IMG/VR virus record: IMGVR_UViG_3300007775_000008
Coordinates: 1-16,029 of that record
Origin: a virus
Length of the DNA: 16,029 nucleotides
Strand: one strand, 5' to 3'
Below the pieces are notes generated by a model that saw nothing but the letters and a program-made list of their open reading frames with translations, made no database searches and was not told the origin of the DNA. Both the position numbers and the translations under genes were made by a program. Positions 1,367 through 16,029 of the stretch are shown here, in pieces. Each line of letters opens with the position of its first letter. The stretch's first letter is position 1.

Positions 1367-1475
1367 AAGTTCGACTAAAGCACGTTACTAAGAACGTATG
1401 GCGCTTTTCCCTCTCACAACTTCCTGATCGGGCGCTTCTTATATAGCCCAATTTTAATACTTATTACCAAATACT

Positions 1476-2531: not shown

Positions 2532-2557
2532 TTTTGGATTTTCTCGCTTTCATAATC

Positions 2558-2601: not shown

Positions 2602-2643
2602 TACGTGTCTCTAAGGGCTGTTTTTTGTTACGGTATTGCCGTC

Positions 2644-2948: not shown

Positions 2949-2953
2949 TATCC

Positions 2954-3754
2954 CTAGGCCATATACTCTGGACGGTCTTGAAAAGGGCGCGGCGTTTCGC
3001 CTAACTCCTTCCCGCACTTCTCACACTTTGCCGCATGTTGGGGGTTTGAATTGCCACACCCTAAACATGTCCAGCCTCCAATAGGGTGATAGGTTGGTTC
3101 TTTGCTTTGTTCTTGGTCATAGGGATTTTTTAAAATAGGCATGGCTGTTTGCTGGTATGTTCTATCCTTTGGCAAGAATGGCATATTAGGATCGGCCTCT
3201 TCAAGCCCCAAATCCCGCTTTACCTGCGACACAATATCTCGGTGAATAGTCACGGCTAGACTTGCCTTTTCCTGGTCAAGTTCGTTTGTCGCCTGCTTTA
3301 TGGCGGTAGTGACGATCTCGCCGCGTGCAATGCCTACGTTTATCTTTTCGTGAATGTCGGGGGCGGTCGCTTCATGGGCGTAGAGCAGGGCGGCATGTAA
3401 AGCCGTCACGATGATGAAGCCATAAGTCATCCATTGCCCGATGTCGCCCGCTTCGATCTGTCCGCTGGATAAGATAACTTCGGCGGCCACCATGCCAAGA
3501 GTGCCAATGAATGCCACAATAAAACCAATGGCTGAGCTTGCATATTGACCTGTACTCTCGGACGTGAACACAAATGCCAAAGCCCAACACATCGCCGCAA
3601 TGTCAAACATGACAAGTCCCCACATGCGATTTATGAGACTATCCGGGAAGATGCGGGCAAGTGCGGAGTAGGTGAGGGACATTAGCAGCGCCAGGACTGC
3701 GATCCCGAACACTGCGAAGATATATTTACTTGCTGTTTGCAAAACTTTTTTCAT
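2954..3754 (-). CDS. Integral membrane protein (about 4 TM helices) with a C-terminal zinc ribbon
   Basis: The ATG at 3754 overlaps the upstream TGA (ATGA) and is preceded by AAGGA 7 nt upstream. The track start at 3772 is a TTG. The N-terminal half has hydrophobic helices and the C-terminus reads GGWTCLGCGNSNPQHAAKCEKCGKELG. Confidence 0.7.
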   Translation of the reverse strand: MKKVLQTASKYIFAVFGIAVLALLMSLTYSALARIFPDSLINRMWGLVMFDIAAMCWALAFVFTSESTGQYASSAIGFIVAFIGTLGMVAAEVILSSGQIEAGDIGQWMTYGFIIVTALHAALLYAHEATAPDIHEKINVGIARGEIVTTAIKQATNELDQEKASLAVTIHRDIVSQVKRDLGLEEADPNMPFLPKDRTYQQTAMPILKNPYDQEQSKEPTYHPIGGWTCLGCGNSNPQHAAKCEKCGKELGETPRPFQDRPEYMA

Positions 3755-4128
3755 GGGGTTATCCTTTCGCAATAGTGCGAATTTATCCAGCCTGTGAAAT
3801 TTTCAAACTGGACTTTTACCCAAGCGCCTGAAGACGGATCGGGTAAGAGAATCAATTGATCTCCCGGCTTTAGCCAGGTGATTACAATCCCTGCCATGCC
3901 TGGAGCGTCTCGCATGTACAAAGACTCCGCAGCGGTCACAACGCAAGTGCTCGGCGCTGGGGTGGTGCTTGCGGTCCCTGTGGGTGCAATCGAATTGATA
4001 GGGGAGGGGAGAGCTTGCTCAGTGGGAGAAACATCAACTGCATTTCGATCGATCGAATCCAGGAGCGATCCGCTGCAAGCCAAAGAAGACAGGGCGAGAA
4101 AGACCGCGATTAGTAATATCCTATTCAT
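3751..4128 (-). CDS. Lipoprotein with a bacterial SH3 (SH3b) domain
   Basis: MNRILLIAVFLALSSLAC is a signal peptide with a lipobox Cys. The C-terminus, LYMRDAPGMAGIVITWLKPGDQLILLPDPSSGAWVKVQFENFTGWINSHY, is SH3b-like. The ATG at 4128 lies 4 nt after the upstream TGA, so the longer track start is unlikely. Confidence 0.7.
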   Translation of the reverse strand: MNRILLIAVFLALSSLACSGSLLDSIDRNAVDVSPTEQALPSPINSIAPTGTASTTPAPSTCVVTAAESLYMRDAPGMAGIVITWLKPGDQLILLPDPSSGAWVKVQFENFTGWINSHYCERITP

Positions 4129-4132
4129 AATG

Positions 4133-4489
4133 TCACCCTGTAATTTCACGCGGGTAGCTTGTTCCACCAGGCGAATGGAACACTCCGCCAATCGCAGCTA
4201 TTTTATGGCTTGCCGATGAAACTGCCTCCAACATAAATTGATTCGCGATCGCTTTGACTTTTCCATCTTTTTCAGTTTCACTATCCCAAGTTGTTAAGAT
4301 GGCTATATCTTGCAGTAAGTCCAACGCATCCTTTTTGGCCCCAATCTTTTCGAGATAAGCTGCTAATGCCTCGAAAGCCGTATCCTTAATCGCGCTCAAA
4401 AATTCTTGAGAAAACACTGGCTCTTCAAATGCTGGACCTGCAATGTCAATTTCCCTAGCTTTCCGATCAACATCATTTTTCTTTTTCAT
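4133..4489 (-). CDS. Hypothetical protein (118 aa)
   Basis: It has a strong RBS (AGGAGTAAATC-ATG) and is the first gene after a regulatory intergenic region. I recognise no motif. Confidence 0.65.
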   Translation of the reverse strand: MKKKNDVDRKAREIDIAGPAFEEPVFSQEFLSAIKDTAFEALAAYLEKIGAKKDALDLLQDIAILTTWDSETEKDGKVKAIANQFMLEAVSSASHKIAAIGGVFHSPGGTSYPREITG

Positions 4490-4521
4490 GATTTACTCCT
4501 ACCTGTTACCAGGCTGATTTA

Positions 4522-4530
4522 TGCTAAAAT
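4522..4530 (+). promoter_or_regulatory. Extended -10 promoter element on the plus strand (TGCTAAAAT)
   Basis: TGn-TAAAAT lies at 4522-4530. The -35 is poor (CCTGTT at a 17-bp spacing). Confidence 0.35.
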
Positions 4531-4536
4531 TCTTAT

Positions 4537-4598
4537 GGATGTTTTGACCTGCCCACTCAGGTCAGACACTAGGCTGCCTCGCTAGGGGCAGCTTTTTT
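4537..4598 (+). ncRNA. Candidate ~60-nt plus-strand small RNA, antisense to the leader of the 4489 operon
   Basis: Hairpin 1 is TGACCTG-cccact-CAGGTCA (4545-4564). Hairpin 2 is GCTGCCTC-gcta-GGGGCAGC (4573-4592) followed by TTTTTTGTTTT. There is no plus-strand CDS here. Confidence 0.4.
4573..4598 (+). terminator. Plus-strand intrinsic terminator
   Basis: An 8-bp GC-rich stem (one G-T pair) with a 4-nt loop is followed by T6. On the minus strand it has no U-tract. Confidence 0.6.
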
Positions 4599-4699
4599 GT
4601 TTTCTTTTTCTTGCCCCTGTCCGTATCATCAATACCCAGGCTAAGAACCAGAGCGCACGATGAACGGTTATTCAGTTGTTAATGTGCGGGGTCTTTTCT

Positions 4700-4769
4700 T
4701 TGGTAATGAGTAAAAAGTAAAAATAATACGCCTTGCGGCGGCTCTTACTCTTTACATTGGTAAAGAGTA
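4700..4769. promoter_or_regulatory. Operator-like repeats TTGGTAA(T/A)GAGTA, one embedded in a 10-bp perfect palindrome
   Basis: TTGGTAATGAGTA lies at 4700-4712 and TTGGTAAAGAGTA at 4757-4769. TACTCTTTAC-attg-GTAAAGAGTA spans 4746-4769. The repeats sit between the terminator and the next operon. Confidence 0.45.
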
Positions 4770-4771
4770 TA

Positions 4772-4809
4772 CCAAAATAAAAAAACCCCGTCAAGCTAAA
4801 ACGGGGTTT
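4772..4809 (-). terminator. Minus-strand intrinsic terminator after the excisionase-like gene
   Basis: Stem 4783-4791/4801-4809 (AAACCCCGT/ACGGGGTTT) has a 9-nt loop. On the minus strand it is followed by TTTTTTTATTTTGG. Confidence 0.8.
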
Positions 4810-4828
4810 ACTTCTCGTCTTTTTGCAT

Positions 4829-5083
4829 CTATTGATCTGCCTTTCGGCGGGGATCGTTCTTTTCCATGTCTTTAGTTCGTTTGAGATATTCAGCCACCGA
4901 TTTTTTAGACACAAGCCATGCACGGCCAAACTTTACTCCATCAAGTGTTTTGTTTCGCAGCATCATTGGGATTGTCTTGACGTGAAAGCCTAGCTTTTTG
5001 GCGGCATCTTTTGTTGAGATGAATTCGCTTAAATCTGGCATATTATTGCTTCTTGCTTGTTTTGTAGGTGAAATATTTATCAT
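4829..5083 (-). CDS. Excisionase-family / MerR-like HTH DNA-binding protein (candidate Xis or RDF)
   Basis: ISTKDAAKKLGFHVKTIPMMLRNKTLDGVKFGRAWLVSKKSVAEYL matches the excisionase-type HTH pattern. The ATG at 5083 is preceded by GGAGA-TAAAC, and the recombinase TAA stop lies within that RBS region. Confidence 0.65.
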   Translation of the reverse strand: MINISPTKQARSNNMPDLSEFISTKDAAKKLGFHVKTIPMMLRNKTLDGVKFGRAWLVSKKSVAEYLKRTKDMEKNDPRRKADQ

Positions 5084-5085
5084 GT

Positions 5086-6708
5086 TTATCTCCATTCGAC
5101 CATGATAGATTTTTCACCACGTATTATCTGTGTGCCCCCACGGGGAGAGGCTACGTTACGTGAGTTATCAGATCCATTCTGAAACAGATCTATCATGGGG
5201 TATGTAAAAAATATTCTTGCTTTATTGTATCCGAGATCGACTCTTGAAACAAATTGCATAAGCCAGGCTTTTACATCTCTCACGTTTCCAGACTCTTGCA
5301 GATCTTCGAATTGATCGCGCCAGGCGATTATCATCAATCGGATTGCTTCCGGAGTGATCACTGTTTGAGCCGCTGTGAGCTGAAGACGTAAACGATCGAT
5401 CTCCGCTCTTGCTTGCATCTTTTCTGCCTCCCGTTCTTTTAGCCTATCCTGGGCAGAGGGAGAGTCTGTCTTTTCGATGGTCCTAAGCAGTCTCTGAATC
5501 GCAATGTCGAGATCATCCAGCTTTCGGTTTTCGGCGGTGATCTGCCTTTCAATTTCTGTTGTTGAATCAAGTTGTTTTTTCGTTTCGTCGATAACCTCCA
5601 TAAGATATTCAGGTGTAAGAACATGATCAAGCACGGCTTTTATAATTTGTGTCTCTGCATTGATCGCCCCAACTCTTCTTGACTTACAAGCAGCGGAACC
5701 ATGGCGATCCTTCTTTCCGCAAATATAATGTTTCCATACTTTATTTTTATTGCCGTTGCTATGGGTCATCATGTTCCCGCATTCAATGCAGTAAGTGAAA
5801 CCCGATAGAGCTGTAGGATTTCCCACTCGCCGCGGATGATTTAGGTTTCCTTTTTTTCCATAGCGCGGATGTGCCTTTCTAAGTTTTTGCACGGCTTCCC
5901 AGAGCTCCCAGGTGATAAGCGGCTCATGATGGTCCGTGATTTCAAGATCTCCGCTCTTGCCAATGCCCAAATAGGATTTATTCTTAAAAAAAGTTGTCCA
6001 TGTGTTGACACTTGTATACAACATCCCTTTTGTAGCTTTGGTGATTTCCCGATAAGATTTTCCCTCAGCTCTCAATTGCCAGGCTATTTTTACATACCCA
6101 CTCAAAACTGGATCAGGCTCCCATCTGCTAACCATGCGCGGTATACCATCGCGCTTTTCACCAATGTTCACTTTGACGGCGACATATCCGCGGGGAGGTA
6201 TGCCAGGCGAAAAACCCTTGCTCACAAGTGACTTTAAACCACGCTTCACATCACGGGAAGTTTGACGGCGCTTTTCTTCATTGGCCAGGCTGATAACTGT
6301 TTCTACAATACGCGCTGAAAAATCATCCACAGGGATCACGTCTGTCACGGAGTGGACCATTACCCCACGCTGCTGCAATGTTGCTTTGTAAAATACGGTG
6401 TCATTATAGTCACGCGAGAAGCGGGCAAAGTTCCAAATCAAGATAGCCTGGGGGCGGATTGTTTCGTCTTCGCTTTGTTCAATCATTCCCATAAATTCAT
6501 CACGTCCAGTTGTACTTCCTCCTGATCGGGCAACATCTCGAAAAACTTTGACCAGGGAAAGGTTATACCGTTTGCAATATGCAATGATTTCGCTTTCCTG
6601 TTGTCCTATGCTCTGCTCCTGAGCTGGTCCGCCGCTGTCACGCAAGTATGCCCACACGCGAGCACCTGCAGTCAAGCTCGGCGGGGGAGGGGAGTATTGA
6701 TCGCTCAT
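5086..6708 (-). CDS. Large serine recombinase (resolvase catalytic domain, recombinase domain, zinc ribbon and coiled coil)
   Basis: 540 aa. The N-terminus WAYLRDSGGPAQEQSIGQQESEI carries a YxRxS-type nucleophile motif. CIECGNMMTHSNGNKNKVWKHYICGKKDRHGSAAC is a zinc ribbon, followed by the coiled coil RKLDDLDIAIQRLLRTIE...EIDRLRLQL. RBS is AAGGATAAATT-ATG. Confidence 0.9.
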   Translation of the reverse strand: MSDQYSPPPPSLTAGARVWAYLRDSGGPAQEQSIGQQESEIIAYCKRYNLSLVKVFRDVARSGGSTTGRDEFMGMIEQSEDETIRPQAILIWNFARFSRDYNDTVFYKATLQQRGVMVHSVTDVIPVDDFSARIVETVISLANEEKRRQTSRDVKRGLKSLVSKGFSPGIPPRGYVAVKVNIGEKRDGIPRMVSRWEPDPVLSGYVKIAWQLRAEGKSYREITKATKGMLYTSVNTWTTFFKNKSYLGIGKSGDLEITDHHEPLITWELWEAVQKLRKAHPRYGKKGNLNHPRRVGNPTALSGFTYCIECGNMMTHSNGNKNKVWKHYICGKKDRHGSAACKSRRVGAINAETQIIKAVLDHVLTPEYLMEVIDETKKQLDSTTEIERQITAENRKLDDLDIAIQRLLRTIEKTDSPSAQDRLKEREAEKMQARAEIDRLRLQLTAAQTVITPEAIRLMIIAWRDQFEDLQESGNVRDVKAWLMQFVSRVDLGYNKARIFFTYPMIDLFQNGSDNSRNVASPRGGTQIIRGEKSIMVEWR

Positions 6709-6944
6709 AATTTATCCTTGCTGTTGTTAGGAATTATTTTTCCGTTTTCGTTTTTCAAAATTCCACGCTCTAAAAGATCATTAATGACAGTCTCAAAATT
6801 TATTACAAGCAGAGACAATGCCGCATCTTGCGCCGTTTTCAGATCGGCATATTGATTGCCGCTGATTTCTTCGATAATCATATCAGGCGCTTTCCGGGGC
6901 ATTGTCTCTGCTTTTATCCTTAGATCTTGTGTTACTTTTTTCAA
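6705..6944 (-). CDS. Hypothetical small protein, translationally coupled to the serine recombinase (ATGA overlap)
   Basis: 79-aa ORF. The start at 6944 is a TTG with a distant GGAG, and an alternative ATG lies at 6902. Confidence 0.5.
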   Translation of the reverse strand: MKKVTQDLRIKAETMPRKAPDMIIEEISGNQYADLKTAQDAALSLLVINFETVINDLLERGILKNENGKIIPNNSKDKL

Positions 6945-6968
6945 AACCCGAAGCTACTCCATAGGCCC

Positions 6969-7025
6969 CTGCTACATGTTACGTGTTTCGCGATTAAAAC
7001 GCGAAACATGTAAACATGTATGCAG
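6969..7025. promoter_or_regulatory. ~57-bp imperfect dyad, candidate attP for the serine recombinase or an operator/terminator
   Basis: The core stem is 12 bp (6981-6992/7000-7011, loop ATTAAAA). The arms extend imperfectly (CTGCTACATGTT vs the reverse complement of AAACATGTATGCAG). There are three ACATGT palindromes. An outer clamp AAAACCCG(6943-6950)...CGGGTTTT(7033-7040) encloses the region. Confidence 0.4.
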
Positions 7026-7050
7026 TATGCAACGGGTTTTTAATTAAATG

Positions 7051-9411
7051 CTAGCCTTGTGACGGGAACAGGCGCATTGTTGAGGGACCGCGCTTGCCTT
7101 TGATCTCTTTTTCAACCAAGATCCCATCCTTTAGTAATTGGTCAAGGATCATTTCTAATTGGTTTCGCTTTACTCCTGTTTGCATGTGAAGATCAATAGC
7201 TATCTCCCTGCGAGAATTTCTCCGAGATGTCTTCAACCGCGCAAGTATCCTTATGGCGAGTTCGTCCTCTTCACTTTCGAGAGGTGTACTCGCATCTTCG
7301 ATCATTCTATGAAGACTTGCTCGGTACCCTTCAGTAATCTCTTGGGCTCTAAACCAGTGGGCATCTTTCACCACAAGCGGATTACCTTTTGCCATCCTTG
7401 CCCAGTCTGATGTTGCCAAAAGAATAGCAATTTTGATTGCCTTTTCATGGAAACGGCCATAAGACGATTCAAGCTTTTCAGGTATCCTCTTTTTCTCAAC
7501 GAGTGAATACATGGCTTTATGATATTTATCCCACCGGCGTTTCACTCCTGGTGCCAGAGTAGCCTCAATAGCGGGTGGAGCTGGTGTTGAACCAAGAGCG
7601 TTTTCCTTTGGTGTTTCCAGCTTTTCAAACATCAGATGATTTATATGCTTTACTAGGGCTGGAGGAATAGGGAATGGATCCGGAAAGAACACACGCACCG
7701 GTGCAGTGTCAGGTGTAACAAGTAAGAAACGGGCAAATAGACCACCACTCCAATATTCAGGAGTTTTCAAATGCTGTCTCAATGCTGCAGGAGTGGTAGG
7801 TCCGCAAATCGTCAAGTAAATATTTCGGACCGTCTCACGACCGCGCGCAATGGTGGAAATTTTTATCTTCGATTCGCATTCATAAAATCTCAAGATGATG
7901 TTTTTGAGTTCTGCCAAATGTTTTTGTTGGAACCATGACAACATGCTAGCAGCTTCATCCATCCACCAGGCCCGCTGCGCTGCAAAAAGACGTTCATTCT
8001 GCCACTCTTCCTTTTCTTCTTGGTTCCAATTTTGGTAATTGTCTTGCGGCCTATTTGACAACTCAGTAATCAAACTTTGCGGTGTTACACCATCGGGCAA
8101 AAGCAGGTGAGATAATCCGGCCATCTTCATAACTTCCAATGCGGTTTTGTAGCCTGTTGTCTTTGTGTATAGTGTGGAAGGTGCTGAGAGCAGGATATAA
8201 AGATTGGGGTAGATGCTTTTCGATGCACCCATGTTCACAAATACGCGCCGTGCAATGGCCGTAGACAAAATAGCTAGTGCGTAGGTTTGATGAAATAGAT
8301 GTGGTGTCATTGGGGCATCTTTGATCGCAAAGGAGATGTAATCATCGATGAATTTACCTGCCTTTTTCCCTAGCTTTATCTCAGCGTCGCTCATCTGAGC
8401 AAAGCTAGGAAGTTCTGGCATGGCAGATGAGATTGCATCGTCTGGATGCTCATTCTCATCGTCAACATCACTTGAGATGATTGGCGCGGCCTTTCCTTGT
8501 TTCTTGACCATCTTCTCGAATGCGTGAGGGTTGGAAGGTGTCCGCGTTTGCGAATAGGCACTCTTGATTGTTTCAATTGCCTCCCCTTCCTTTTTCCCTA
8601 AGTTGGACCATACCGGCAAAAGAAAAGACTCTGCTTCACTTTGGGAATATCCGCAACCGTTCAAATCACAAGCGGCAATGAATAGCCTGTTATTTCGCGT
8701 ATGTGGTCCCGCGCCAAATTCAAGAAAGTCCTTGGTTTGGCTTGACACTCTTCCACGCTCATTACTGGAAAGATTTGCAGGAGTTGGATCTGTCGATTTT
8801 TTGTCATTCTTGAAGTCATCCCACAATTGACAAATGCGGATGATCTTTTCACCATCGTATTCGAGCGCGGACCTATCAGCATTGTGCAATTCATAAAGAG
8901 CGCCTCCCGGGTGCGTTGAAGGCGGCACAACGCCTTGATTGCCATTCCCCAGGAATTCCAAATGGACATCATGCCATTTTTTATTTTTGGGGATCGATCC
9001 TTTGATCTGTAATACAAGCTTGCCACGATCGGGCGCATCTGCTCTTTTTATAATTGGAGCATTGGCCAATCCGGGGAAGTATTCAAAGAATTCCTGCAGG
9101 TGATCGTCAATGTCAAGCAAACATAGTCCGCTTGATTTCTTTCCACACAATAGGCCAACATTCCCACCTTTTTTTACGTGAGGCAGAATATCCTTGAATG
9201 CGATCGGCTTGACCTGCCAAGCCTTGTCAATCGGTTGTTTCCCAGGGGAGTTTACCTTTGCGTTCCATGCAGCCACTCGGACAAAGTTGGCACCCTGTTG
9301 TGCAAACCATTCAAGGGATGTATAATCGTTTTGGATGTTCTGACGCTTCGCTAGCGTCCCTTGTGCCCTGGCTTCTGCTGGGGCACTTTGTTTTTCATTC
9401 TTCGTTGTCAT
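7051..9411 (-). CDS. Bifunctional primase-polymerase (Prim-Pol N-terminus, PriCT-like middle) fused to a DUF3987-like helicase/ATPase domain
   Basis: 786 aa. GKQPIDKAW...GGNVGLLCGKKSSGLCLLDIDDH and LEFLGNGNQGVVPPSTHPGGALY are Prim-Pol signatures. HTRNNRLFIAACDLNGCGYSQSEAESFL is PriCT-like. The C-terminal ~400 aa resemble DUF3987. RBS is GAAAGGAAAACGAAG-ATG. Confidence 0.85.
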   Translation of the reverse strand: MTTKNEKQSAPAEARAQGTLAKRQNIQNDYTSLEWFAQQGANFVRVAAWNAKVNSPGKQPIDKAWQVKPIAFKDILPHVKKGGNVGLLCGKKSSGLCLLDIDDHLQEFFEYFPGLANAPIIKRADAPDRGKLVLQIKGSIPKNKKWHDVHLEFLGNGNQGVVPPSTHPGGALYELHNADRSALEYDGEKIIRICQLWDDFKNDKKSTDPTPANLSSNERGRVSSQTKDFLEFGAGPHTRNNRLFIAACDLNGCGYSQSEAESFLLPVWSNLGKKEGEAIETIKSAYSQTRTPSNPHAFEKMVKKQGKAAPIISSDVDDENEHPDDAISSAMPELPSFAQMSDAEIKLGKKAGKFIDDYISFAIKDAPMTPHLFHQTYALAILSTAIARRVFVNMGASKSIYPNLYILLSAPSTLYTKTTGYKTALEVMKMAGLSHLLLPDGVTPQSLITELSNRPQDNYQNWNQEEKEEWQNERLFAAQRAWWMDEAASMLSWFQQKHLAELKNIILRFYECESKIKISTIARGRETVRNIYLTICGPTTPAALRQHLKTPEYWSGGLFARFLLVTPDTAPVRVFFPDPFPIPPALVKHINHLMFEKLETPKENALGSTPAPPAIEATLAPGVKRRWDKYHKAMYSLVEKKRIPEKLESSYGRFHEKAIKIAILLATSDWARMAKGNPLVVKDAHWFRAQEITEGYRASLHRMIEDASTPLESEEDELAIRILARLKTSRRNSRREIAIDLHMQTGVKRNQLEMILDQLLKDGILVEKEIKGKRGPSTMRLFPSQG

Positions 9412-9425
9412 CTTCGTTTTCCTTT

Positions 9426-9650
9426 CTAAACTGTATCGGTATTTGATCCGATACAGTTCGAAGCCGTACCGGTTATAGCCTTATTGATTGCAGGGTCTTC
9501 AGTTTCTATCGCTTTTTGAAGTGCAGCTTTCTTTTCTCTATAAGCATCCATCCAGGCGGATTCCTGCTTTATATCTCCGCCGTAATATGGATGTGGACAA
9601 AGCTTATCGTGGGGATATCCTGCTTGAGATCCACACATACAGAGGTCCAT
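9426..9650 (-). CDS. Small Cys/His-rich hypothetical protein (74 aa)
   Basis: The ATG at 9650 is preceded by AGGAG with an 8-nt spacer. The track start at 9668 is a TTG that lies over the RBS. Translation: MDLCMCGSQAGYPHDKLCPHPYYGG... Confidence 0.6.
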   Translation of the reverse strand: MDLCMCGSQAGYPHDKLCPHPYYGGDIKQESAWMDAYREKKAALQKAIETEDPAINKAITGTASNCIGSNTDTV

Positions 9651-9713
9651 AAGTTTTTCTCCTTTCAAATAAATTTCACGCCCCTTCTACCTATGTGTGA
9701 ACAGGTTATTTGC

Positions 9714-9759
9714 TTCACTCTGATAGCTTGGCGCGGCGTAGATTCACTCTATAAAGCTT
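9714..9759. repeat. Two direct repeats TTCACTCT-(GATA/ATAAA)-GCTT in an intergenic region
   Basis: Copies lie at 9714-9729 and 9743-9759. A possible minus-strand promoter TTCACA-N17-TGAAAT (9701-9673) lies just downstream. Confidence 0.4.
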
Positions 9760-9772
9760 CCAATAAAATCCA

Positions 9773-9988
9773 TTAGGAATAATTAGGGCATGTTTCATTC
9801 CGGCATACCTGTTTGCCTTCCGTAGTCAGGTGCAGCTCACAATGGCACTCTGAGCAGACCTGGATAACAACAATGTCCAGGATCTTGCCTGTCAAGATCT
9901 GCATTGCCTGGTCCCAGGCAGCACGCTTTTCAGGTGGTAACGGCACGTGCCTGATTTCAATATCAGCATCCAATTCTCTTTTTGGCAT
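9773..9988 (-). CDS. Small zinc-ribbon protein (71 aa)
   Basis: The ATG at 9988 is preceded by AGGAAAGGAATTGTT. The C-terminus reads CSECHCELHLTTEGKQVCRNETCPNYS (CxxC...CxxxxC). Confidence 0.6.
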   Translation of the reverse strand: MPKRELDADIEIRHVPLPPEKRAAWDQAMQILTGKILDIVVIQVCSECHCELHLTTEGKQVCRNETCPNYS

Positions 9989-10112
9989 AACAATTCCTTT
10001 CCTAAATATTTTGTGATAATGTGGCGGCGCGACCACCACTGTATAAGATCATCGTTGATTCCAGTAGTAAAAAAGAGCGTTGGGAGAGCGATCAATCAAT
10101 ACTGGATTTTTC

Positions 10113-10160
10113 CTGTACATTTTCTGTACATTTTCTGTAAAAATATTTTTATATCGATAT
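10113..10160. repeat. Iteron-like 11-bp tandem repeat plus AT-rich palindromes (candidate replication origin or promoter/operator)
   Basis: CTGTACATTTT occurs twice (10113-10134) with a degenerate third copy CTGTAAAAAT. It is followed by the palindromes AAAATATTTT (10140-10149) and ATATCGATAT (10151-10160). Confidence 0.45.
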
Positions 10161-10243
10161 CAGATCTCGACCCGTTTTTCTGGAAAAGTTGTGAAGCGCC
10201 GAGACGCTGCGCCCTCGGGCGCCTGGCCAGATCGAGCGCGAAT

Positions 10244-10277
10244 CCCCGAAGACCCCACCCCCCCTATCCCCTTCCCC
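10244..10277 (-). other. G-quadruplex motif on the minus (coding-sense) strand / i-motif on the plus strand
   Basis: Plus-strand C-tracts lie at 10244-10247, 10253-10256, 10258-10264, 10268-10271 and 10274-10277. On the minus strand this reads GGGGAAGGGGATAGGGGGGGTGGGGTCTTCGGGG. Confidence 0.6.
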
Positions 10278-10335
10278 ACACGCGAGATCTATACCGTGCC
10301 CGGACCTGTCCGCACGCACGCACTCCCGCACGGAA

Positions 10336-10392
10336 TTATTGGCGGTTAAATTCGTTTTCAAAACATCTTCAAAACATCTTGACCGCCAATAA
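10336..10392. repeat. 11-bp perfect stem enclosing a tandem 11-mer repeat
   Basis: TTATTGGCGGT (10336-10346) pairs with ACCGCCAATAA (10382-10392). The 35-nt loop carries TTCAAAACATC twice (10357-10378). Confidence 0.6.
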
Positions 10393-10464
10393 CTCAACAG
10401 TCCCAAACGTGTATAGGCTTCCCTATCAGATGCTATTTTCTGCAGTGATCGGGCTGCTTCTGTT

Positions 10465-10506
10465 GTCCGCGGTGTACTGTTAAAACTGTCACAGTACACC
10501 GCGGAC
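10465..10506. repeat. 16-bp perfect inverted repeat (hairpin or cruciform)
   Basis: GTCCGCGGTGTACTGT (10465-10480), loop taaaactgtc, then ACAGTACACCGCGGAC (10491-10506). There is no flanking U-tract on either strand. Confidence 0.7.
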
Positions 10507-10519
10507 TAGCAAGCCCCAC

Positions 10520-10587
10520 GCCCCAGGCAAATCACACAGGAAGGGCGGAGAAGGAGAAAGACCTCCCCTACCGTGTTTTCCTGGGGC
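10520..10587. repeat. Long-range 8-bp clamp around a purine-rich segment
   Basis: GCCCCAGG (10520-10527) pairs with CCTGGGGC (10580-10587). The interior reads GGAAGGGCGGAGAAGGAGAAAGACCTCCCC. Confidence 0.4.
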
Positions 10588-10660
10588 AGCATGGCCAAGG
10601 CACATAACGCCCAATAAAAGAGCATTTTGGGCTTCATGTTTCTACTGAATAAGAATTAAG

Positions 10661-11548
10661 TTATAAAGGTTCCATGGCGCGCGCCGCCGCCCCGCTATCA
10701 CGCTCCCGCTCTCGTTCTCGCTCCGCATCTTCCCATGCTTCAGCCCGCCTGACAGCGGACCTATAAGCCAAGGTCAAAGCCTTGTACCTGGGCGCGTATT
10801 TCGATCTCAGGCATTTTTCACAGATGACAAAATCTGAATCGATGTAAATAGATTCTTCTATGTATGCACCTTGCAGATCTTCAACGTCTGAAACAACTTC
10901 AAGATATTCGGCCTCTTCAGCCGCATAAGCAAATGTTCCAGCAGCGGACCAGTTGAAAGAAGTTCCACAAATTGCACATTCAGTAATTTCAAAATCCACA
11001 ATCTTTTCAAAACGCTGGGGGAAGTGGTTGATCTTGTTTGATATCTCACCGCTGCTTTTTGAGAGGTAATCCAGTATCCAATCACCCGCAATTTCAAAAG
11101 CGTGTTTTTGCAGATCGTCCATTAGATCGGTTTTGTAGCTGATCGCGTAAGATTGATTGCCCGTTTTTGGATCGGTGTAGATATGGCCAATCGTCTTCCA
11201 TTCATCAGTTGGATTAATTCTGAGTTTGGTTCTCTTTTCGTTGTTTGGTATTACCTGCCTTTTTGGATCGGCTTTCCGTTTCTGTAAAAACTTGAGTACC
11301 ATTCCAAATGTCCATGAATAGCGGCGCTTTAGCCAGGTGATTACATCGCCGGTTTCCTGCTCCATGCCTGGACGATTGATCTCATACGTTTGACGGCGGA
11401 TGTCCACAGTCAAGCCGTATGTATTTGTGCTGCGCCATATTTCGGAGTTTTTCGCGTCCACTTCAAACGCTTCGCCCGCTTCCTGCATGAGAAGCTCGAT
11501 ACGATGTTTTTCCTTCAATGCACGGAGTTCGTCTTTAGTCATCTTCAT
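10661..11548 (-). CDS. Hypothetical protein (295 aa) with two CxxC pairs and an acidic/ERERER tail, coupled to the upstream ATPase
   Basis: The ATG at 11548 is preceded by AGGTGA-CAGCG and overlaps the upstream gene by 14 nt. Motifs are CAICGTSFNW...ICEKCLRSK and a C-terminal AEAWEDAERERERERD. Confidence 0.65.
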   Translation of the reverse strand: MKMTKDELRALKEKHRIELLMQEAGEAFEVDAKNSEIWRSTNTYGLTVDIRRQTYEINRPGMEQETGDVITWLKRRYSWTFGMVLKFLQKRKADPKRQVIPNNEKRTKLRINPTDEWKTIGHIYTDPKTGNQSYAISYKTDLMDDLQKHAFEIAGDWILDYLSKSSGEISNKINHFPQRFEKIVDFEITECAICGTSFNWSAAGTFAYAAEEAEYLEVVSDVEDLQGAYIEESIYIDSDFVICEKCLRSKYAPRYKALTLAYRSAVRRAEAWEDAERERERERDSGAAARAMEPL

Positions 11549-12851
11549 CGCTGTCACCTGCCAATTCATATATCTTTGCACCCTTCGCAGCGCTCACGAA
11601 GATGATCTCTCGTGTTCCATGAAGAATTTCAATCCCTTCCCTAATATTTGCATCACTCAGGCTTTTATCAATGCGCTTTGCTTCTGCCCTCAATTGCGTG
11701 TGATTCAATTTATCGTTCTGTTTGAGGGCTTCAATGATCGCATCATGTGCCCGGGCAGTTTTGCTTCGATAGGCAATCCGCCAAAAACGCGCCTCTGTCA
11801 GATCCAAGTTTTCATCTTGGGTGTATGAAAAGTTTGCACTGATGTTGGGAGCATCAGGACCACGGACGGCCACTGGCTTGATCGTGACCTGGTCTTTATC
11901 AGCCATATCTCGTTCAACAAGGAACGCTCCGTCAACCCCAGCAAGGATGCTTCCCGATCCCCTTAGATTATCTTCAGGTGCCCCACCCGCTTTACCAATG
12001 CCCTTTTTGGCATGATGTACCAGGATGATCGCAACATTACACGCTTCTGATATCTGACGAATGGCTCCCATGATTTGAGAAGCTAGCGGACTGTTTTCAT
12101 CCACGGGGCCAAACACCTGCCCAAGATGATCTATAACAAGCACCCCAATATCTCCAAGCCCTTTTATGCGTTCGATCATTGCAGCCACATTTTCAGGCCT
12201 TGAAAAATCCGGCCATGGAGAGGGCATGCTGTAGGCTTGAAACTGGCCGTGGTCAATATCAATCTCCAGCGCCCTGGCGAATGCTTTCATGCGTCTTTTC
12301 AAAACTTGGGTACCATTTTCCAGATCGATCCAAACAACACGCTCAGACGCTACTTCAATGCCATCGCTTCCCTTGGGGGTGGTCATCCAATATAAGCCGC
12401 TCACAATGTGATGACACATATCCATAATGACCAATGTCTTTTTATGCTTCGGTTTTCCAAAGAAAACCACCACTGAAGGACGTGGAAGGAAATATCTCAC
12501 GACCCATGAAATAGGCGGGATCTCCTCCACCATCACATCTGCCAGGTCGAAGGCTTCCCAACCCTTTGACGTTTCCAGTGTTGCCAGGTCCGCATTAGGA
12601 TTTGCGAGATCGATCATGGGGGAAAGTATCAGATCCAAGCCACGTGCCGTCAGCTCTGCCTGTAATCTGCTCTTACGCTTTGACTTGTCCCTCCCCTCCG
12701 ATAGGACACTCATCACCACATCAAGCAATGGACCCTGTAAGCGGGATAAATCCGCCGCTGTTGGATCGTTTGCAGTGGAATCAGTCAATCTCCGTAGTAA
12801 ATGCGCCGCGTAGTTAAGTACGTGCTGGGGTTGTTGCGTTGTGTCTGCCAT
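11535..12851 (-). CDS. RecA-fold ATPase, RepA/AAA_25-like (replicative helicase-like)
   Basis: 438 aa. The Walker A-like motif is FFGKPKHKKT (12435-12458). VLVIDHLGQ is Walker B-like, followed by AIILVHHAKKG...LRGSGSILAGVDGAFLVER, typical of the AAA_25/RepA pattern. No clear SD precedes the ATG at 12851. Confidence 0.75.
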   Translation of the reverse strand: MADTTQQPQHVLNYAAHLLRRLTDSTANDPTAADLSRLQGPLLDVVMSVLSEGRDKSKRKSRLQAELTARGLDLILSPMIDLANPNADLATLETSKGWEAFDLADVMVEEIPPISWVVRYFLPRPSVVVFFGKPKHKKTLVIMDMCHHIVSGLYWMTTPKGSDGIEVASERVVWIDLENGTQVLKRRMKAFARALEIDIDHGQFQAYSMPSPWPDFSRPENVAAMIERIKGLGDIGVLVIDHLGQVFGPVDENSPLASQIMGAIRQISEACNVAIILVHHAKKGIGKAGGAPEDNLRGSGSILAGVDGAFLVERDMADKDQVTIKPVAVRGPDAPNISANFSYTQDENLDLTEARFWRIAYRSKTARAHDAIIEALKQNDKLNHTQLRAEAKRIDKSLSDANIREGIEILHGTREIIFVSAAKGAKIYELAGDSDEDD

Positions 12852-12889
12852 GTTTTCATTTTTTCAATAATCAACGGGTCAAACGTTTT

Positions 12890-13462
12890 TCACCTTTTGT
12901 TGAGTTTTCTTCGTAAGTCAGTCGGTGTGATTTCTTTTTTCGTTGTGATCTCGTTTGGAAAAAAATCCATCAACGCTGGAAGATCCGTAGCAATCTTTGA
13001 AATAAGATTGGCGCGTTTGGTTTGTACGTAAGTAAGGGTGTGATGATCGCCGCTTTTCAAGTCGGCTCGATACGCGCTGTATTTCTCTTTGAGCTCATCT
13101 GTCTTATTGGCAGCATCCAAAAACAGGGCGTAAATCTCATCCTGAATTTGCAGAGCATCTTTATTGATCTCCGCCATTCTGGAAAGGCGAATAGTATTTA
13201 ACTCTTTCGCACGTTCCTGTTCATCTTTCTGAATCTCAAAGTCCAGGTCTTTGATTCCCGTTTCGGTCCCTTCAATGCGAACTCGAAGATTTACAATCTC
13301 ATCAGTCAACTTGGAAGTTGACCGCCCATCACGTATTGCCTGGGATTGATCGGAGAGTTTCACTTTGAGAGATGCTCTCTGCTCATCAAGCAGTTTCACG
13401 AGCTCGGAGCGCTGCTCCTTGGTTGTAGCTAGTTTTTTTTCAAGTTTTTCAAGTGTGTTCAT
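12890..13462 (-). CDS. Coiled-coil hypothetical protein (190 aa)
   Basis: RBS is AAGAGGAAAC-ATG. The sequence is heptad-rich and charged (EKLEKKLATTKEQRSELVKLLDEQRASLKVKL...). Confidence 0.65.
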   Translation of the reverse strand: MNTLEKLEKKLATTKEQRSELVKLLDEQRASLKVKLSDQSQAIRDGRSTSKLTDEIVNLRVRIEGTETGIKDLDFEIQKDEQERAKELNTIRLSRMAEINKDALQIQDEIYALFLDAANKTDELKEKYSAYRADLKSGDHHTLTYVQTKRANLISKIATDLPALMDFFPNEITTKKEITPTDLRRKLNKR

Positions 13463-13471
13463 GGTTTCCTC

Positions 13472-13666
13472 TTATTCATCCAAGCGAATGAATGTTTTGT
13501 TTCGATTTTCGTCGCGTTCTTTAATTGAAACTTTTTTCCCCAGGCTCTCGTTCATTAGCTTTACGACCGCATCCTGAATCGATTGCTTTTCTTCTTCTGT
13601 CAACTTTTCAAATGCGGCCGCATCTTCATCGTCAACGGGAATGTATATGGATATTCTTTTTTTCAT
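13472..13666 (-). CDS. Small protein (64 aa), possibly ribbon-helix-helix-like
   Basis: The ATG at 13666 is preceded by AAAGGAG-TTTGAAA. The track start at 13672 is a TTG. The N-terminus KRISIYIPVDDEDAAAFEKL resembles an RHH strand-helix. Confidence 0.55.
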   Translation of the reverse strand: MKKRISIYIPVDDEDAAAFEKLTEEEKQSIQDAVVKLMNESLGKKVSIKERDENRNKTFIRLDE

Positions 13667-13668
13667 TT

Positions 13669-14166
13669 TCAAACTCCTTTAGGTGGAAAATATTGAATAC
13701 TTAACGCTGCATTTAACAGCGCCATGATTCCAGTGTCATCAAACTTTGCTAAGGCTACATTCTCAATAATCTTTTCAAGTTGATCCGCTATACTTTGCGC
13801 TTCAATCTCAATAGGCTTTTTAGGATGCTGTAGCCTTTCATCATCACTTACAGTCAAATAAGGTCCACGCTCGAGAATAATTTTTTCAATTATTTCCATT
13901 GTTCCGCTTTCAAATTCTGGAAGTTTATGCCCCGCTAAATAATGGCCACATTCATGTAGGGCAGTTAGGTAAAGATCGTATGTAGAAAGTTTCGGATTAA
14001 TATCGATGCAAATCACGCCTTTACCATCCCGGTAGATTTCTCCAGCGGTGTTCTGTGTTCTTGGCTCACGCCAATTGACCTTCACAGTCATTTGAATAAA
14101 GTTAATGCACATCAAACGAATCAGCCTTTTAACTTCTTCGATGTCAACTTGGTGATTTTCGTCCAT
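13669..14166 (-). CDS. HExxH zinc metallopeptidase-like protein (SprT/ImmA-IrrE-like zincin)
   Basis: 165 aa. GVICIDINPKLSTYDLYLTALHECGHYLAGH carries the HExxH motif in the context seen in SprT/DUF45/ImmA-type zincins. Confidence 0.6.
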   Translation of the reverse strand: MDENHQVDIEEVKRLIRLMCINFIQMTVKVNWREPRTQNTAGEIYRDGKGVICIDINPKLSTYDLYLTALHECGHYLAGHKLPEFESGTMEIIEKIILERGPYLTVSDDERLQHPKKPIEIEAQSIADQLEKIIENVALAKFDDTGIMALLNAALSIQYFPPKGV

Positions 14167-14180
14167 CTGATTTATTCATC

Positions 14181-14372
14181 CTATGTGGAAGATTCCGAGA
14201 TCTGCTCAGTGGGAAAAACATCTTGCGAAATATCAATCAATCCCTCTTGGGCAAGTCGTTCTCGAATCAATAATGCAGCTTGATCCCCAGGCTCTCGTTT
14301 CTCTCTTTCAGAGAGAGAAATCAAAGCACTCTTCTCTTGGTCACTCAAAATAATTGTTAGACGTGTTGACAT
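14181..14372 (-). CDS. Ribbon-helix-helix (CopG/Arc-like) DNA-binding protein
   Basis: 63 aa. TRLTIILSDQEKSALISLSEREKREPGDQAALLIRERL fits an RHH. RBS is GGAGTGAAAACAA-ATG. Confidence 0.65.
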   Translation of the reverse strand: MSTRLTIILSDQEKSALISLSEREKREPGDQAALLIRERLAQEGLIDISQDVFPTEQISESST

Positions 14373-14401
14373 TTGTTTTCACTCCATTAACAAAAAAATG
14401 A

Positions 14402-14435
14402 CGGCTATTCATGCCGTCATTTTTGCATATTATTT
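14402..14435 (-). terminator. Bidirectional intrinsic terminator
   Basis: A7, then ATGACGGC-tattcat-GCCGTCAT (14408-14430), then T5. On the minus strand the hairpin is followed by TTTTTTTG. Confidence 0.7.
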
Positions 14436-14475
14436 TTTGTTAGGCTACTTCAATGAACCTATCGATAACCTATTT

Positions 14476-15069
14476 CTACTTTCTTTCTTTATCGTAAGGG
14501 ATACGAGCATCTGGAAAGCTTCTTCTTAATTTAGAAATTTTGTTATGTACTGTTGTGACTTTCCAAAAGTCTAACCCTTTACCTTTAGTCCAATCTGAAA
14601 TTTCCTTTGCAGTTTTATTTTCACACCATAATTCAACAGCTTTACGTTCCTGGTCCGAAATACTTACTGGTAAATGGTCACAAGGACTCCAAATTTCTCC
14701 CATCGTTTTTACTGTGTCACCTTCCTGCAGTACCTTGGCATATGGCCCCCCCCAAATATAATCCTTATCTATTACACTTTTCCAAAACAACCAAAACAAA
14801 ACGATATTTAGTCTATTCACTTTGTCTGTTTTGTCTCTCAATACCACTTCTATTTTGCATCCATAACCTGTATGTTCAAAACTAATATAAGCACCAGAGA
14901 AGCTTATCGAATAATGCTCATCTTCTCTCCACTCATTAAGATGCGTCTTTATTTTTAGTTTTGTAAGATGTCTGTCGAACCATGCTGAAAGATAGCTTGG
15001 ACTTTGACCCGATTTTGCAATCCAAGATTCGGGAAGTTCATCAAGTTCTTTTTCCAATAATTCATTCAT
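14476..15069 (-). CDS. Putative transcription regulator with a C-terminal LuxR/sigma-70 region-4-like HTH
   Basis: The ATG at 15069 is preceded by GGAGA-TAAGAGAC. The C-terminus reads SDQERKAVELWCENKTAKEISDW...TVHNKISKLRR. The gene is visibly AT-richer than its neighbours. Confidence 0.6.
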   Translation of the reverse strand: MNELLEKELDELPESWIAKSGQSPSYLSAWFDRHLTKLKIKTHLNEWREDEHYSISFSGAYISFEHTGYGCKIEVVLRDKTDKVNRLNIVLFWLFWKSVIDKDYIWGGPYAKVLQEGDTVKTMGEIWSPCDHLPVSISDQERKAVELWCENKTAKEISDWTKGKGLDFWKVTTVHNKISKLRRSFPDARIPYDKERK

Positions 15070-15084
15070 GTCTCTTATCTCCAA

Positions 15085-15114
15085 TTGACTAGCCCCGCTC
15101 GGAGATGCTATAAT
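15085..15114 (+). promoter_or_regulatory. Near-consensus sigma-70 promoter on the plus strand
   Basis: TTGACT (15085-15090), an 18-nt spacer, then TATAAT (15109-15114). It lies back-to-back with the RBS of the minus-strand regulator gene. Confidence 0.6.
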
Positions 15115-15120
15115 CAGTCC

Positions 15121-15185
15121 GAGCATGAGCCCGTGATCTCATGCACTCCCATCTCCGCCCTGGACGAACAGGACGGAGATTTTTT
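15121..15185 (+). ncRNA. Candidate ~65-nt plus-strand small/antisense RNA
   Basis: It is fired from the promoter above. Hairpin 1 is GCATGAG-cccgtgat-CTCATGC (15123-15144). Hairpin 2 is the terminator. Only a 3-codon ORF is present. Confidence 0.5.
15151..15185 (+). terminator. Plus-strand intrinsic terminator
   Basis: ATCTCCGCCCTG-gacgaa-CAGGACGGAGAT (a 12-bp stem with one G-T pair) is followed by TTTTT. On the minus strand the same hairpin lacks a U-tract. Confidence 0.65.
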
Positions 15186-15211
15186 ATAGGGGAGATATTA
15201 TTTTACAAGAT

Positions 15212-15448
15212 TTAATTCACCTCGCTTAGCTTGTTTGCCAATCCTTGGGCCAACATTGCGAGTTTCATTCTAAACGTAAGCTTGTTACCCAGCAATGCCT
15301 GATATGAGCATGAACTCCAAATTGTGACGGGCTTCCCATAATGTGGGGATACTTTGCCATTGCAAAAGTGATCGTCTGTTGAAGTTTCTCTACCTTTGAT
15401 TTGAGTCCTACACATCAAGCAGACAGTTCCGACCTTCTTTTTTTCCAT
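15212..15448 (-). CDS. Small Cys-rich hypothetical protein (78 aa), coupled to the tape-measure stop
   Basis: GGAGG-CGTGTAGG-ATG, with the ATG 1 nt after the tape-measure TAG. It contains CLMC and HFC motifs. Confidence 0.6.
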   Translation of the reverse strand: MEKKKVGTVCLMCRTQIKGRETSTDDHFCNGKVSPHYGKPVTIWSSCSYQALLGNKLTFRMKLAMLAQGLANKLSEVN

Positions 15449-15449
15449 C

Positions 15450-16029
15450 CTACACGCCTCCTAAATTGAAAATCAACTCGTTGGCCAGCATATCAACCCG
15501 CTGATCGATCTCTCCACGAATTTGACGTAGTGTAAGACCGCTATTGAAATACTGGTTGATCGTCTGCTGCTGTGAATTGGACTGGTTCGTGATCGGTTGT
15601 ACCAGCGAACGCGCCATATCTTCAGGAGAGACGCGCTGCAAACCCATCTGAAAGCCCTGTGCGGTGAACATGCCCAGCTTCATAGCTTCTACCGACGGCG
15701 AACCAATCCCCAAAGATTTCTTGATCGCGCTTAGTACCGTCTCACCTACTTTTGTAGCAACCGTCAATAGTCCGGGGATGCCAAGCAACATGCCGTTCGC
15801 CAATCCCTGCAGGATGTATTTACCAACCAGCCCCCAATCGATGCGAGAGAATGTATCGCGGATATAGGTCACAAGTTTGCCGAGCGCATCACGCATGAAT
15901 GTCATGAACTTATTCCAGGCGTCCTTGATGCCGAAAATCTTCTCGAATACTTTGTTGAAACGTTCCACGAAGGCATCCCAGGCTTCCTGCAGGTATTCCG
16001 TGGCCGCATCCGTATCACCTTTCAGGAAA
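15450..16029 (-). CDS. Phage tail tape measure protein, C-terminal part (same gene as 1..1310 across the junction; about 588 aa in total)
   Basis: Track ORF 15450..15968 is in frame with the ORF from 1310 (1310 minus 62 equals 1248, a multiple of 3). The track's initial 'M' is an internal GTG valine. The sequence contains the LGIGSPSVEAMKLGMFTAQGF motif common in tape measure C-terminal regions. Stop is TAG at 15450-15452. Confidence 0.8.
   Translation of the reverse strand, partial: FLKGDTDAATEYLQEAWDAFVERFNKVFEKIFGIKDAWNKFMTFMRDALGKLVTYIRDTFSRIDWGLVGKYILQGLANGMLLGIPGLLTVATKVGETVLSAIKKSLGIGSPSVEAMKLGMFTAQGFQMGLQRVSPEDMARSLVQPITNQSNSQQQTINQYFNSGLTLRQIRGEIDQRVDMLANELIFNLGGV
15907..16029. repeat. 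Right copy of the exact 123-bp terminal direct repeat
   Basis: Identical to 1-123. It lies inside the tape-measure reading frame. Confidence 0.95.

Follow-up and report, generated by a model that had tools for sequence, protein, structure and literature searches.

Here, we analyzed a gene-free island within a 16,029-nt stretch of DNA recorded as viral (IMG/VR record IMGVR_UViG_3300007775_000008, positions 1 to 16,029); this whole stretch is called the window in the following. The island is real and consists of DNA control sites that are conserved as a block. Our reading of it, held tentatively and at somewhat less than even confidence, is that of a composite cis-acting DNA region that would combine an origin of replication, a dif-like site for multimer resolution and the promoter/operator of a primase operon. 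An origin is favored by the position of the island, by short repeats that converge around an AT-rich centre and by a perfectly maintained hairpin. The informative features, i.e., this hairpin (H1), the polarity of GTGAT pentamers around it, two terminal boxes and the dif-like site, emerge from the sequences only when the window is compared with its relatives, while those cited in a first-pass annotation of the same DNA are mostly specific to the window.

The gene-free stretch covers 672 nt (9989-10660) and is bounded by the stop codon of one gene (10661-10663) and the ATG of the next (9988). It is the longest of the element; according to the gene calls, the gaps next in size measure ~340-380 nt. 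The island proper (9989-10701) is slightly larger and starts at a conserved 15-bp box (box 1, GTGATAGCGGGGCGG, 10687-10701), which lies within the 3' end of a gene for a 293-aa protein and forms the left boundary. It sits inside the replication genes, with an AAA_25 ATPase gene and the 293-aa gene on one side and a Prim-Pol/DUF3987 primase-helicase gene on the other. All parts of the island are given for the minus strand, which holds nearly all genes of the window.

As a background model, we used 300 dinucleotide shuffles of 9989-10700. Both the longest perfect stem (16 observed; mean 6.5 and maximum 10 in the shuffles) and the longest tandem run (16 observed; mean 6.0, maximum 11) exceed this background, and folding of the whole island gives z = -6.8 as RNA (minus strand) and z = -5.4 as DNA (plus strand). 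All five features listed by the first-pass annotation are present and above chance. These are the 11-bp tandem repeat with AT palindromes (10109-10139 and 10138-10151), a core rich in GC and in C (10201-10400 has a GC content of 0.585 and a GC skew of -0.316, vs. a GC content of 0.38 in 10001-10200), a stem with a second 11-bp repeat in its loop (arms 10333-10349/10379-10395, 17 nt, 88% complementary; repeat 10357-10380, 2.2 copies), the 16-bp perfect hairpin (10465-10506) and a clamped purine-rich domain (10520-10587, with 12-nt arms that are 92% complementary).

As relatives, we used 16 further distinct loci that encode a homologue of the 293-aa protein (given L-numbers below where needed), collected from the contigs of the homologues and from a scan of JGI metagenomes. 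Each locus whose sequence continues beyond this gene carries the island, i.e., 650-1000 nt of non-coding DNA that follow the gene directly. The parts of the island come in the same order throughout, with the adjacent protein being only 33-57% identical. The island holds no conserved coding sequence: the stop-to-stop open reading frames (ORFs) of ten relatives share only short patches that track conserved DNA, and none of the ORFs inside the island is conserved.

The island can be interrupted. L017 and L025 carry an orthologous tyrosine recombinase gene within it, L011 a 121-bp tandem array, and L018, L019 and L022 other extra sequence. Since the island tolerates large insertions between its parts, it resembles a string of independent protein-binding sites rather than a single RNA. 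The array of L011 had been called as a 264-aa gene (6860-7400, with the call starting within the H1 hairpin); we rejected it as a coding sequence, given its period of ~121 bp (Tandem Repeats Finder: 7002-7235, 1.9 copies). The same locus shows two copies of the module around box 9 (see below; 7599 and 7944), with a run of N after the second.

H1 (10465-10506) has in the window a 16-bp perfect stem (arms 10465-10480/10491-10506) and a 10-nt loop, which reads GACAGTTTTA on the gene strand. In 16/17 sequences the stem consists of 12-20 consecutive perfect Watson-Crick pairs without any mismatch or G-T pair; the exception is L022 with one bulge. These perfect stems are built from about nine different sequences, e.g., GTCCGCGGTGTACTGT in the window and GTGCGTGATACGTGTTA, TTGGGTATGGTGTGATAGCC or GTGTGTGGGGGG elsewhere. 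The loop of 8-10 nt is conserved as TCTTTTAA or CTCTTAA (gene strand), and so are the flanks TGTGTGAT and CGATCAC. Pairing was read stem by stem for each sequence; MAFFT placed hairpins of different length out of register.

Compensatory changes were also counted with RNAalifold. For the left half of the island, it reports H1 and nothing else substantial (consensus of -15.8 kcal/mol, 444 columns). Once H1 is taken out, z-scores of the minimum free energy scatter around 0 for the left and the right half in most of ten relatives, while the window's right half reaches z = -3.7 because its own AACCG boxes are inverted. When homologues are compared for covariation against plain sequence conservation, as the first-pass annotation had advised, H1 is the only conserved secondary structure of the island; the other shared parts are linear motifs. 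The lack of G-T pairs suggests that both strands need to be able to form the hairpin, i.e., that H1 may act as a cruciform or as a signal in single-stranded DNA (ssDNA). We also considered H1 as the attP of the element's serine recombinase and rejected this, as the relatives within large contigs keep H1 intact in mid-element.

A further line of evidence is the arrangement of GTGAT and its reverse complement ATCAC around H1. Their density is 9.6 per kb within the islands and 3.0 per kb outside them in the same loci. The H1 centre separates the two forms in ten of ten relatives, with all GTGAT copies to its left and all ATCAC copies to its right. There are 4-10 copies per island; the window itself has only 2 + 2. 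Here, the outer TGTGTGAT copy (10531-10538) lies 5' of the hairpin with its pentamer directed at it, while the outer ATCAC copy CCCGATCAC (10445-10453) lies 3' in opposite orientation. CTGTGTGAT is nearly invariant in alignment A3. Of the three options put forward by the first-pass annotation (origin, cos/pac site, large RNA), an origin is still the best; what resembles the origins of Staphylococcus aureus pathogenicity islands (SaPIs) is this polarity on either side of the AT-rich loop of H1. The argument via the 11-bp repeats as iterons did not stand: within the relatives' AT-rich variable segment, no counterpart of these repeats was found. The respective segment of the window (10108-10161; repeats at 10109-10139 with period 11, 2.8 copies and 95% matches, followed by AT-rich palindromes, among them the one at 10138-10151) is the least conserved of the island (column conservation 0.52-0.56).

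A second convergent GTGAT/ATCAC pair is located at the right end of the island. There, the promoter-proximal block (10013-10074) ends in box 9 (10013-10027, CCGCCACATTATCAC), 24 nt upstream of the ATG at 9988, followed by the segment from ribosome-binding site to ATG (9986-10003). In ten relatives, the block reads TTTGGAA..CTTGAAATG..TGTGAttttnCCCCGCCrCryTATCAC, and in several of them GTGAT and ATCAC converge 21 nt apart. Box 1 is an inverted copy of box 9 and is found in the same place in all relatives that reach it (consensus GTGAyAGcGcGGCGG). A long-range RNA helix between both boxes was considered and rejected, given that each varies around the same consensus without compensation. As a side observation, the Logan assembly of SRR5210470 splits the element into L003 and L005, which overlap by 22 nt exactly at box 1 (window 10682-10703).

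Other parts of the island likewise behave as DNA sites. The two AACCGCCAAT boxes (10336-10349 and 10379-10392) are inverted in the window only, with the window-specific 11-bp tandem repeat (10357-10378) between them; in L007, L008, L009, L015 and L016 they are direct repeats. The stem at 10336-10392, listed as a structure by the first-pass annotation, is therefore better described as a pair of putative binding boxes than as a conserved hairpin. The palindrome TTTTCCAGAAAA (10172-10188), embedded in an AT-rich setting, is kept in relatives as TTTCCAGAAAA or TTCTGGAAAA, i.e., its centre flips while the symmetry stays, and it is repeated in L019, L022 and L025. Similarly, TTCCAGAA and TTCTGGAA alternate between elements such that dyad symmetry is kept and strand is not. 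Because the AACCG boxes and the TTCCAGAA palindrome switch orientation between elements, they are probably protein sites on DNA and not RNA helices.

Based on these observations, we propose the following mechanism. A neighbouring protein would bind the GTGAT repeats, which converge on the hairpin (10465-10506) from both sides and recur in the two terminal 15-bp boxes; candidates are the 293-aa protein, which resembles a primase zinc-binding domain (ZBD), and/or the AAA_25 helicase. Binding and the AT-rich tracts together would open the DNA. The perfect inverted repeat could then extrude as a hairpin on either strand and serve as a loading or priming signal for whichever primase/helicase is present. 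Replicated multimers would be resolved by the Xer-like tyrosine recombinase at the 11-6-11 palindrome (10410-10430), and the last 60 bp of the island, ending in box 9, would drive and control the downstream operon. A candidate for the unwinding element is block A (10613-10655), which combines a T-tract, GTAG, an A-tract and (A/G)TCCCAAA (ATCCCAAA) and is conserved in an alignment of 16 sequences. It is one of three conserved AT-rich segments of the island (AT 0.62-0.72, column conservation 0.65-0.79 across relatives).

Several points weigh against an origin. No strongly AT-rich unwinding element is conserved among the relatives, with the AT-richest tract (10138-10161) being specific to the window. 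Neither a RepC-like protein nor a winged-helix Rep initiator was found among the element's proteins by Pfam, PHROG and NCBIfam scans and structure comparison. The cumulative GC skew has no turning point at the island, which is uninformative because all genes are on one strand. GTGAT is short, and its enrichment stems partly from the GT-rich arms of the hairpin. Perfect H1 stems could equally serve sense and antisense RNAs. Finally, the family of the downstream primase/helicase gene varies between relatives, such that H1 cannot be a signal specific to one primase.

This last point leads to a more specific and more doubtful version of the origin. The gene that follows the island can be Prim-Pol/DUF3987, DUF3854, DUF3987 together with a DnaG-like zinc-ribbon protein, or Prim-Pol accompanied by a Rep_1 rolling-circle initiator (swaps were noted in L007, L009, L011, L013 and L015), while the AAA_25 gene and the 293-aa gene accompany the island throughout. 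H1, the converging GTGAT repeats and the terminal boxes might thus form an undescribed kind of origin, read by the cysteine-less primase-ZBD protein and the AAA_25 helicase, that works independently of the family of the downstream primase (Prim-Pol, DUF3854/Toprim-like, DnaG-like) or of a rolling-circle Rep; we rate this as an unlikely but specific possibility. If true, the element would carry a portable 'origin + loader' cassette onto which differing priming enzymes are swapped. Provided that the origin assignment holds, a constant origin-plus-loader unit with exchangeable primases/helicases around it would clearly exemplify modular evolution of replication modules.

The main rival to an origin is a purely transcriptional boundary, to which we assign a rather low probability. 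According to it, the operon of the AAA_25 and 293-aa genes ends at H1, boxes and palindromes act as operators, and the primase operon has its promoter at the right end of the island, without any origin. The genes are indeed co-directional with two operons meeting at the island, box 9 and a TGTGA...TCACA-like pair lie 25-40 nt before the next start codon in all relatives, and long perfect hairpins elsewhere in these elements resemble terminators. H1, however, is followed by no T-run on either strand in any relative and was not reported by a consensus terminator scan. It is thus no canonical terminator, because it lacks the T-tract present at other hairpins of these elements. One of the latter, a canonical bidirectional terminator-like hairpin with A/T tracts, is found at 14394-14424 of the window (AAAAATGACGGC-TATTCAT-GCCGTCATTTTT). 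H1 is also located ~150-190 nt beyond the stop codon and has a conserved loop sequence (8-10 nt), neither of which fits a terminator well. The promoter/terminator consensus scan as a whole did not exceed the shuffles and revealed no sigma-70-like promoter above chance, and ~650 nt of ordered conserved motifs far exceed what a terminator plus a promoter would need.

The perfect stems invite another explanation, namely that H1 is the target of antisense (countertranscript) control of copy number, where sense and antisense RNA both fold and pair through their loops. If both strands had to fold, no G-U pair would be expected among the ~250 strictly Watson-Crick pairs, which is what we observe; the conserved loop and the location within the replication module fit as well. 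But cruciforms or ssDNA hairpins account equally well for the absence of G-U, ~480 nt lie between H1 and the gene that follows downstream, in L017 and L025 a recombinase gene stands between H1 and the primase operon, and no promoter-like sites flank H1 on either strand. We therefore regard antisense control as distinctly improbable.

The multimer-resolution part of the composite region is based on the palindrome at 10410-10430 (TCTGATAG-GGAAGC-CTATACA), a candidate site for an Xer-like recombinase. The respective family consensus is GCTTCyGATAG-TGAAGC-CTATCrGCAAA, i.e., an 11-6-11 layout. GATAG-N6-CTATC (<=1 mismatch) occurs in the island of 11/18 loci scanned, with just two further matches in all that DNA. 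The half-sites covary, i.e., CCGATAG comes with CTATCGG and CTGATAG with CTATCAG, and the extended arms, as read from the sequence, are symmetric at 9/11 positions. The probable partner is the element's Xer-like tyrosine recombinase (1476-2531, minus strand; PF00589), for which XerA/XerC/XerD/XerS are the best NCBIfam similarities, all below cut-offs. Its gene is ~8 kb away from the site in the window. In L017 (3320-4415) and L025 (6367-7434), it lies inside the island and starts ~30 nt after the palindrome; the window's recombinase is 66% identical to the orthologue inside the L025 island. The element thus combines two inverted ~11-bp arms, a spacer within the 6-8 bp of Xer/dif sites and a putative cognate tyrosine recombinase.

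The same evidence could mean that the island chiefly serves recombination, as the attP or res site of this tyrosine recombinase, with the palindrome as core and the repeats as arm sites. Its dif/lox format with half-sites that change together, extra TTCCGATAG copies that flank it in L009, L017, L018 and L025, and the recombinase gene that abuts it in L017 and L025 all agree with such a role. Three relatives speak against this. L009, L015 and L022 are part of large contigs (414, 117 and 236 kb, respectively) and are therefore taken as integrated copies; their island is intact in mid-element, which means that it is not the crossover point of integration. The palindrome is furthermore missing or degenerate in L019, L007 and L008 and covers just ~30-80 of the ~670 nt. 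While a recombination locus is thus quite improbable as an account of the whole island, multimer resolution is for the palindrome itself more likely than integration, since the site has stayed intact in the integrated relatives.

The right half of the island holds the G-run GGGGAAGGGGATAGGGGGGGTGGGGTCTTCGGGGA (gene strand; 10243-10277), which ends in GGGGTCTTCGGGGA and corresponds to the C-rich core of the first-pass annotation. No other segment of this half is as well conserved or as rich in GC (AT 0.16, conservation 0.85). In the window, the G-run shows four G-tracts, such that it could form a G-quadruplex. A cos/pac site for packaging by a helper phage, also suggested by the first-pass annotation, would take this block as cohesive ends and the repeats as terminase-binding sites. 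One may point to the G-run as the best-conserved GC-rich block, to contigs L006 and L010, which end at or just after it, to two relatives classed as viral contigs in IMG/VR and to the tape-measure-like protein encoded by the element. However, none of the ORFs scanned against Pfam and PHROGs matches a terminase, portal or capsid protein, nothing pointed to defined DNA ends, contigs commonly break at homopolymer G-runs as a sequencing artefact, with other contigs breaking elsewhere, and the window's contig was assembled through the island as a circle. We hence consider packaging very improbable.

Lowest in probability, and largely refuted by the comparison of relatives, is a large structured non-coding RNA of ~600 nt transcribed from the gene strand: although the window's island folds far better than shuffles (z = -6.8) and its terminal boxes could form a closing helix, the RNAalifold consensus holds H1 only, z-scores are ~0 for both halves of the island in the majority of the ten relatives, changes in box 1 and in box 9 do not compensate each other, boxes change orientation between elements, genes and tandem arrays are inserted within the island, and Rfam contains no family that matches the window or 11 relatives at gathering score (E <= 10 gave only chance microRNA and small nucleolar RNA matches to hairpins).

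Two further parts complete the island. The helix of the clamped domain (10520-10531/10576-10587) encloses a purine-rich insert and is kept with different sequences, i.e., with compensatory changes, in L018 (CACGCCCAGGG/CCCTGGGCGTG) and L019 only. The insert is absent from most relatives, and the domain is specific to one subfamily. The GCGTGCG block (10310-10323) contains GCGTGCGC, which is invariant in our first alignment of six sequences and kept in most of the ten sequences later aligned.

With regard to the element itself, the window is the reverse complement of contig DATFMU010000206.1 from an Anaerolineales metagenome-assembled genome (Chloroflexi). The ends of this contig overlap by 141 bp (direct repeat), from which it follows that the window represents a complete closed circle of 15,906 bp. 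This circular molecule is an episome or the excised form. Gene order on the minus strand starts with several small genes of unknown function, followed by the AAA_25 (RepA/DnaB-like) ATPase (11535-12851; PF13481, E = 7e-24; PHROG primase/helicase families) and the 293-aa gene (10661-11542). Both genes are paired in all loci, and the latter is in every case directly 5' of the island. The first gene after the island encodes a 71-aa zinc-ribbon protein (9773-9988), and downstream follow the Prim-Pol + DUF3987 primase-helicase (7051-9411) and a large serine recombinase (5086-6708), all on the minus strand. An HTH_17 excisionase-like protein is encoded between the serine and the tyrosine recombinase. 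A 588-aa tape-measure-like protein with a long hydrophobic centre (1-1310, minus strand, reaching across the circle junction to ~15450-16029) matches a phage tape-measure PHROG (E = 2e-26). Scanning the window for tRNAs and tmRNAs yielded none.

The 293-aa protein was modelled with AlphaFold (mean predicted local distance difference test score of 83). In the model, residues 1-92 fold like the zinc-binding domain of the primase DnaG (1d0q, probability 1.00, target template modelling score 0.66), and the best BFVD matches of the model are viral CHC2-type primases. This ZBD-like domain lacks the zinc cysteines. The C-terminal half has four conserved cysteines (CxxC...CxxC) and a Glu/Arg-rich helix of ~50 residues. 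Only 27 homologues were found among 5.8 billion proteins. The protein has no match in Pfam, PHROG or NCBIfam, and searches of PDB sequences with its profile and with AAA_25 gave nothing significant.

Relatives are likewise rare in sequence collections. Comparing the island (blastn) and the 293-aa protein (tblastn) with phage and plasmid collections resulted in no match, and scans of IMG/VR with the flanking proteins or with the box 9 DNA pattern returned nothing. The hairpin DNA pattern matched two IMG/VR contigs, both of which are loci already in our set. Two relatives (15.9 and 17.1 kb) are entered in IMG/VR as viral contigs. A scan of GTDB genomes gave a single match, a distant Chloroflexi.

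Some observations concern the surroundings of the recombinase and primase genes. In L009, a complete tRNA-Val gene (314-388) immediately precedes the HTH_17 and tyrosine recombinase genes of the element; we rejected it as an att site, as the locus holds no second copy of its 3' end. The serine recombinase ORF of the same locus (12968-15586) lies at the opposite end and is fused in the gene call to epimerase/NAD-binding domains (872 aa). Just upstream of the window's Prim-Pol gene, there is a perfect 11-bp hairpin (AACTGTATCGG...CCGATACAGTT, 9429-9458). Related CCGA(T/C)AC motifs, in tandem or inverted, precede primase/helicase genes of relatives (L009 9743-9768, L013 7071-7103, L015 8066-8090) and are similar to the CCGATAG half-site of the dif-like palindrome. 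They may be operators.

Mobile elements of Chloroflexi are almost unstudied, and the island marks a small and coherent family of integrative or episomal elements of 12-17 kb, in which the proteins next to the island belong to no named family. The island provides cis-acting landmarks for delimiting such elements and for building replicons or vectors for Anaerolineae. It also yields a concrete hypothesis, i.e., a hairpin-centred origin that would be served by a primase-ZBD-like protein and a dif-like site that would be served by an Xer-like recombinase.

Finally, we compared the island with known systems. None of the three origin families compared fits in full; the likenesses are therefore resemblances of mechanism and not of membership. 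In SaPI origins, 6-12 iterons of five or six nucleotides directly follow rep on its 3' side and run in opposite directions around an AT-rich centre (PMC9371898). The island shares with them the setting in a small integrative element, the non-coding block immediately 3' of a replication gene and short pentanucleotide repeats (here GTGAT) in opposed orientation around an AT-rich centre. In contrast to SaPIs, where the flanking gene encodes a winged-helix Rep helicase, the neighbours are an AAA_25 ATPase and a primase-ZBD-like protein. No winged-helix Rep was detected, and the DUF3987 helicase gene lies downstream, where it is absent in some relatives. The inner repeats are here embedded in a perfect 12-20-bp hairpin with an AT-rich centre of only the 8-10-nt loop, and the island is three to four times longer than a SaPI origin, with unrelated extra modules.

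The origin candidate of pRN1 is a stem-loop of unconserved sequence that requires perfect pairing and has conserved flanks (PMC4234260). H1 follows this pattern: its sequence drifts with perfect pairing (about nine stem sequences, all perfectly paired except for the bulge in L022), its flanks are conserved, and it adjoins a primase-helicase module. Size and location differ. The pRN1 stem-loop is ~100 nt long and 3' of the Prim-Pol gene, whereas H1 measures 37-46 nt and is found 5' of it, ~1.05 kb upstream of Prim-Pol/DUF3987. Moreover, H1 persists in relatives without a Prim-Pol gene, e.g., where DUF3854 replaces it.

In RSF1010, hairpin single-strand initiation (ssi) signals are used together with the RepA helicase and a primase (PMC8567376). 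The RepA-like (AAA_25) helicase, the element-encoded primase, GC-rich and AT-rich segments and a hairpin as possible single-strand initiation signal are common to the IncQ/RSF1010 oriV and the island. The former, however, has two separate ssi sites on opposite strands (ssiA/ssiB), where the island has one palindromic hairpin that could fold on both strands, and the primase family is not constant here. There is also no conserved array of 20-22-bp iterons, with only the window-specific 11-bp repeats (2.2-2.8 copies) in its place, and no RepC-like protein was found in the Pfam, PHROG and NCBIfam scans.

For the 28-bp dif/Xer sites, there are two differences: the recombinase is below all NCBIfam cut-offs, and the site is degenerate in some relatives. 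The palindrome at 10410-10430 shares with dif/Xer sites the 11-6-11 layout with imperfectly symmetric arms as well as the type of partner, i.e., an Xer-like tyrosine recombinase, which is encoded beside the site in two relatives.

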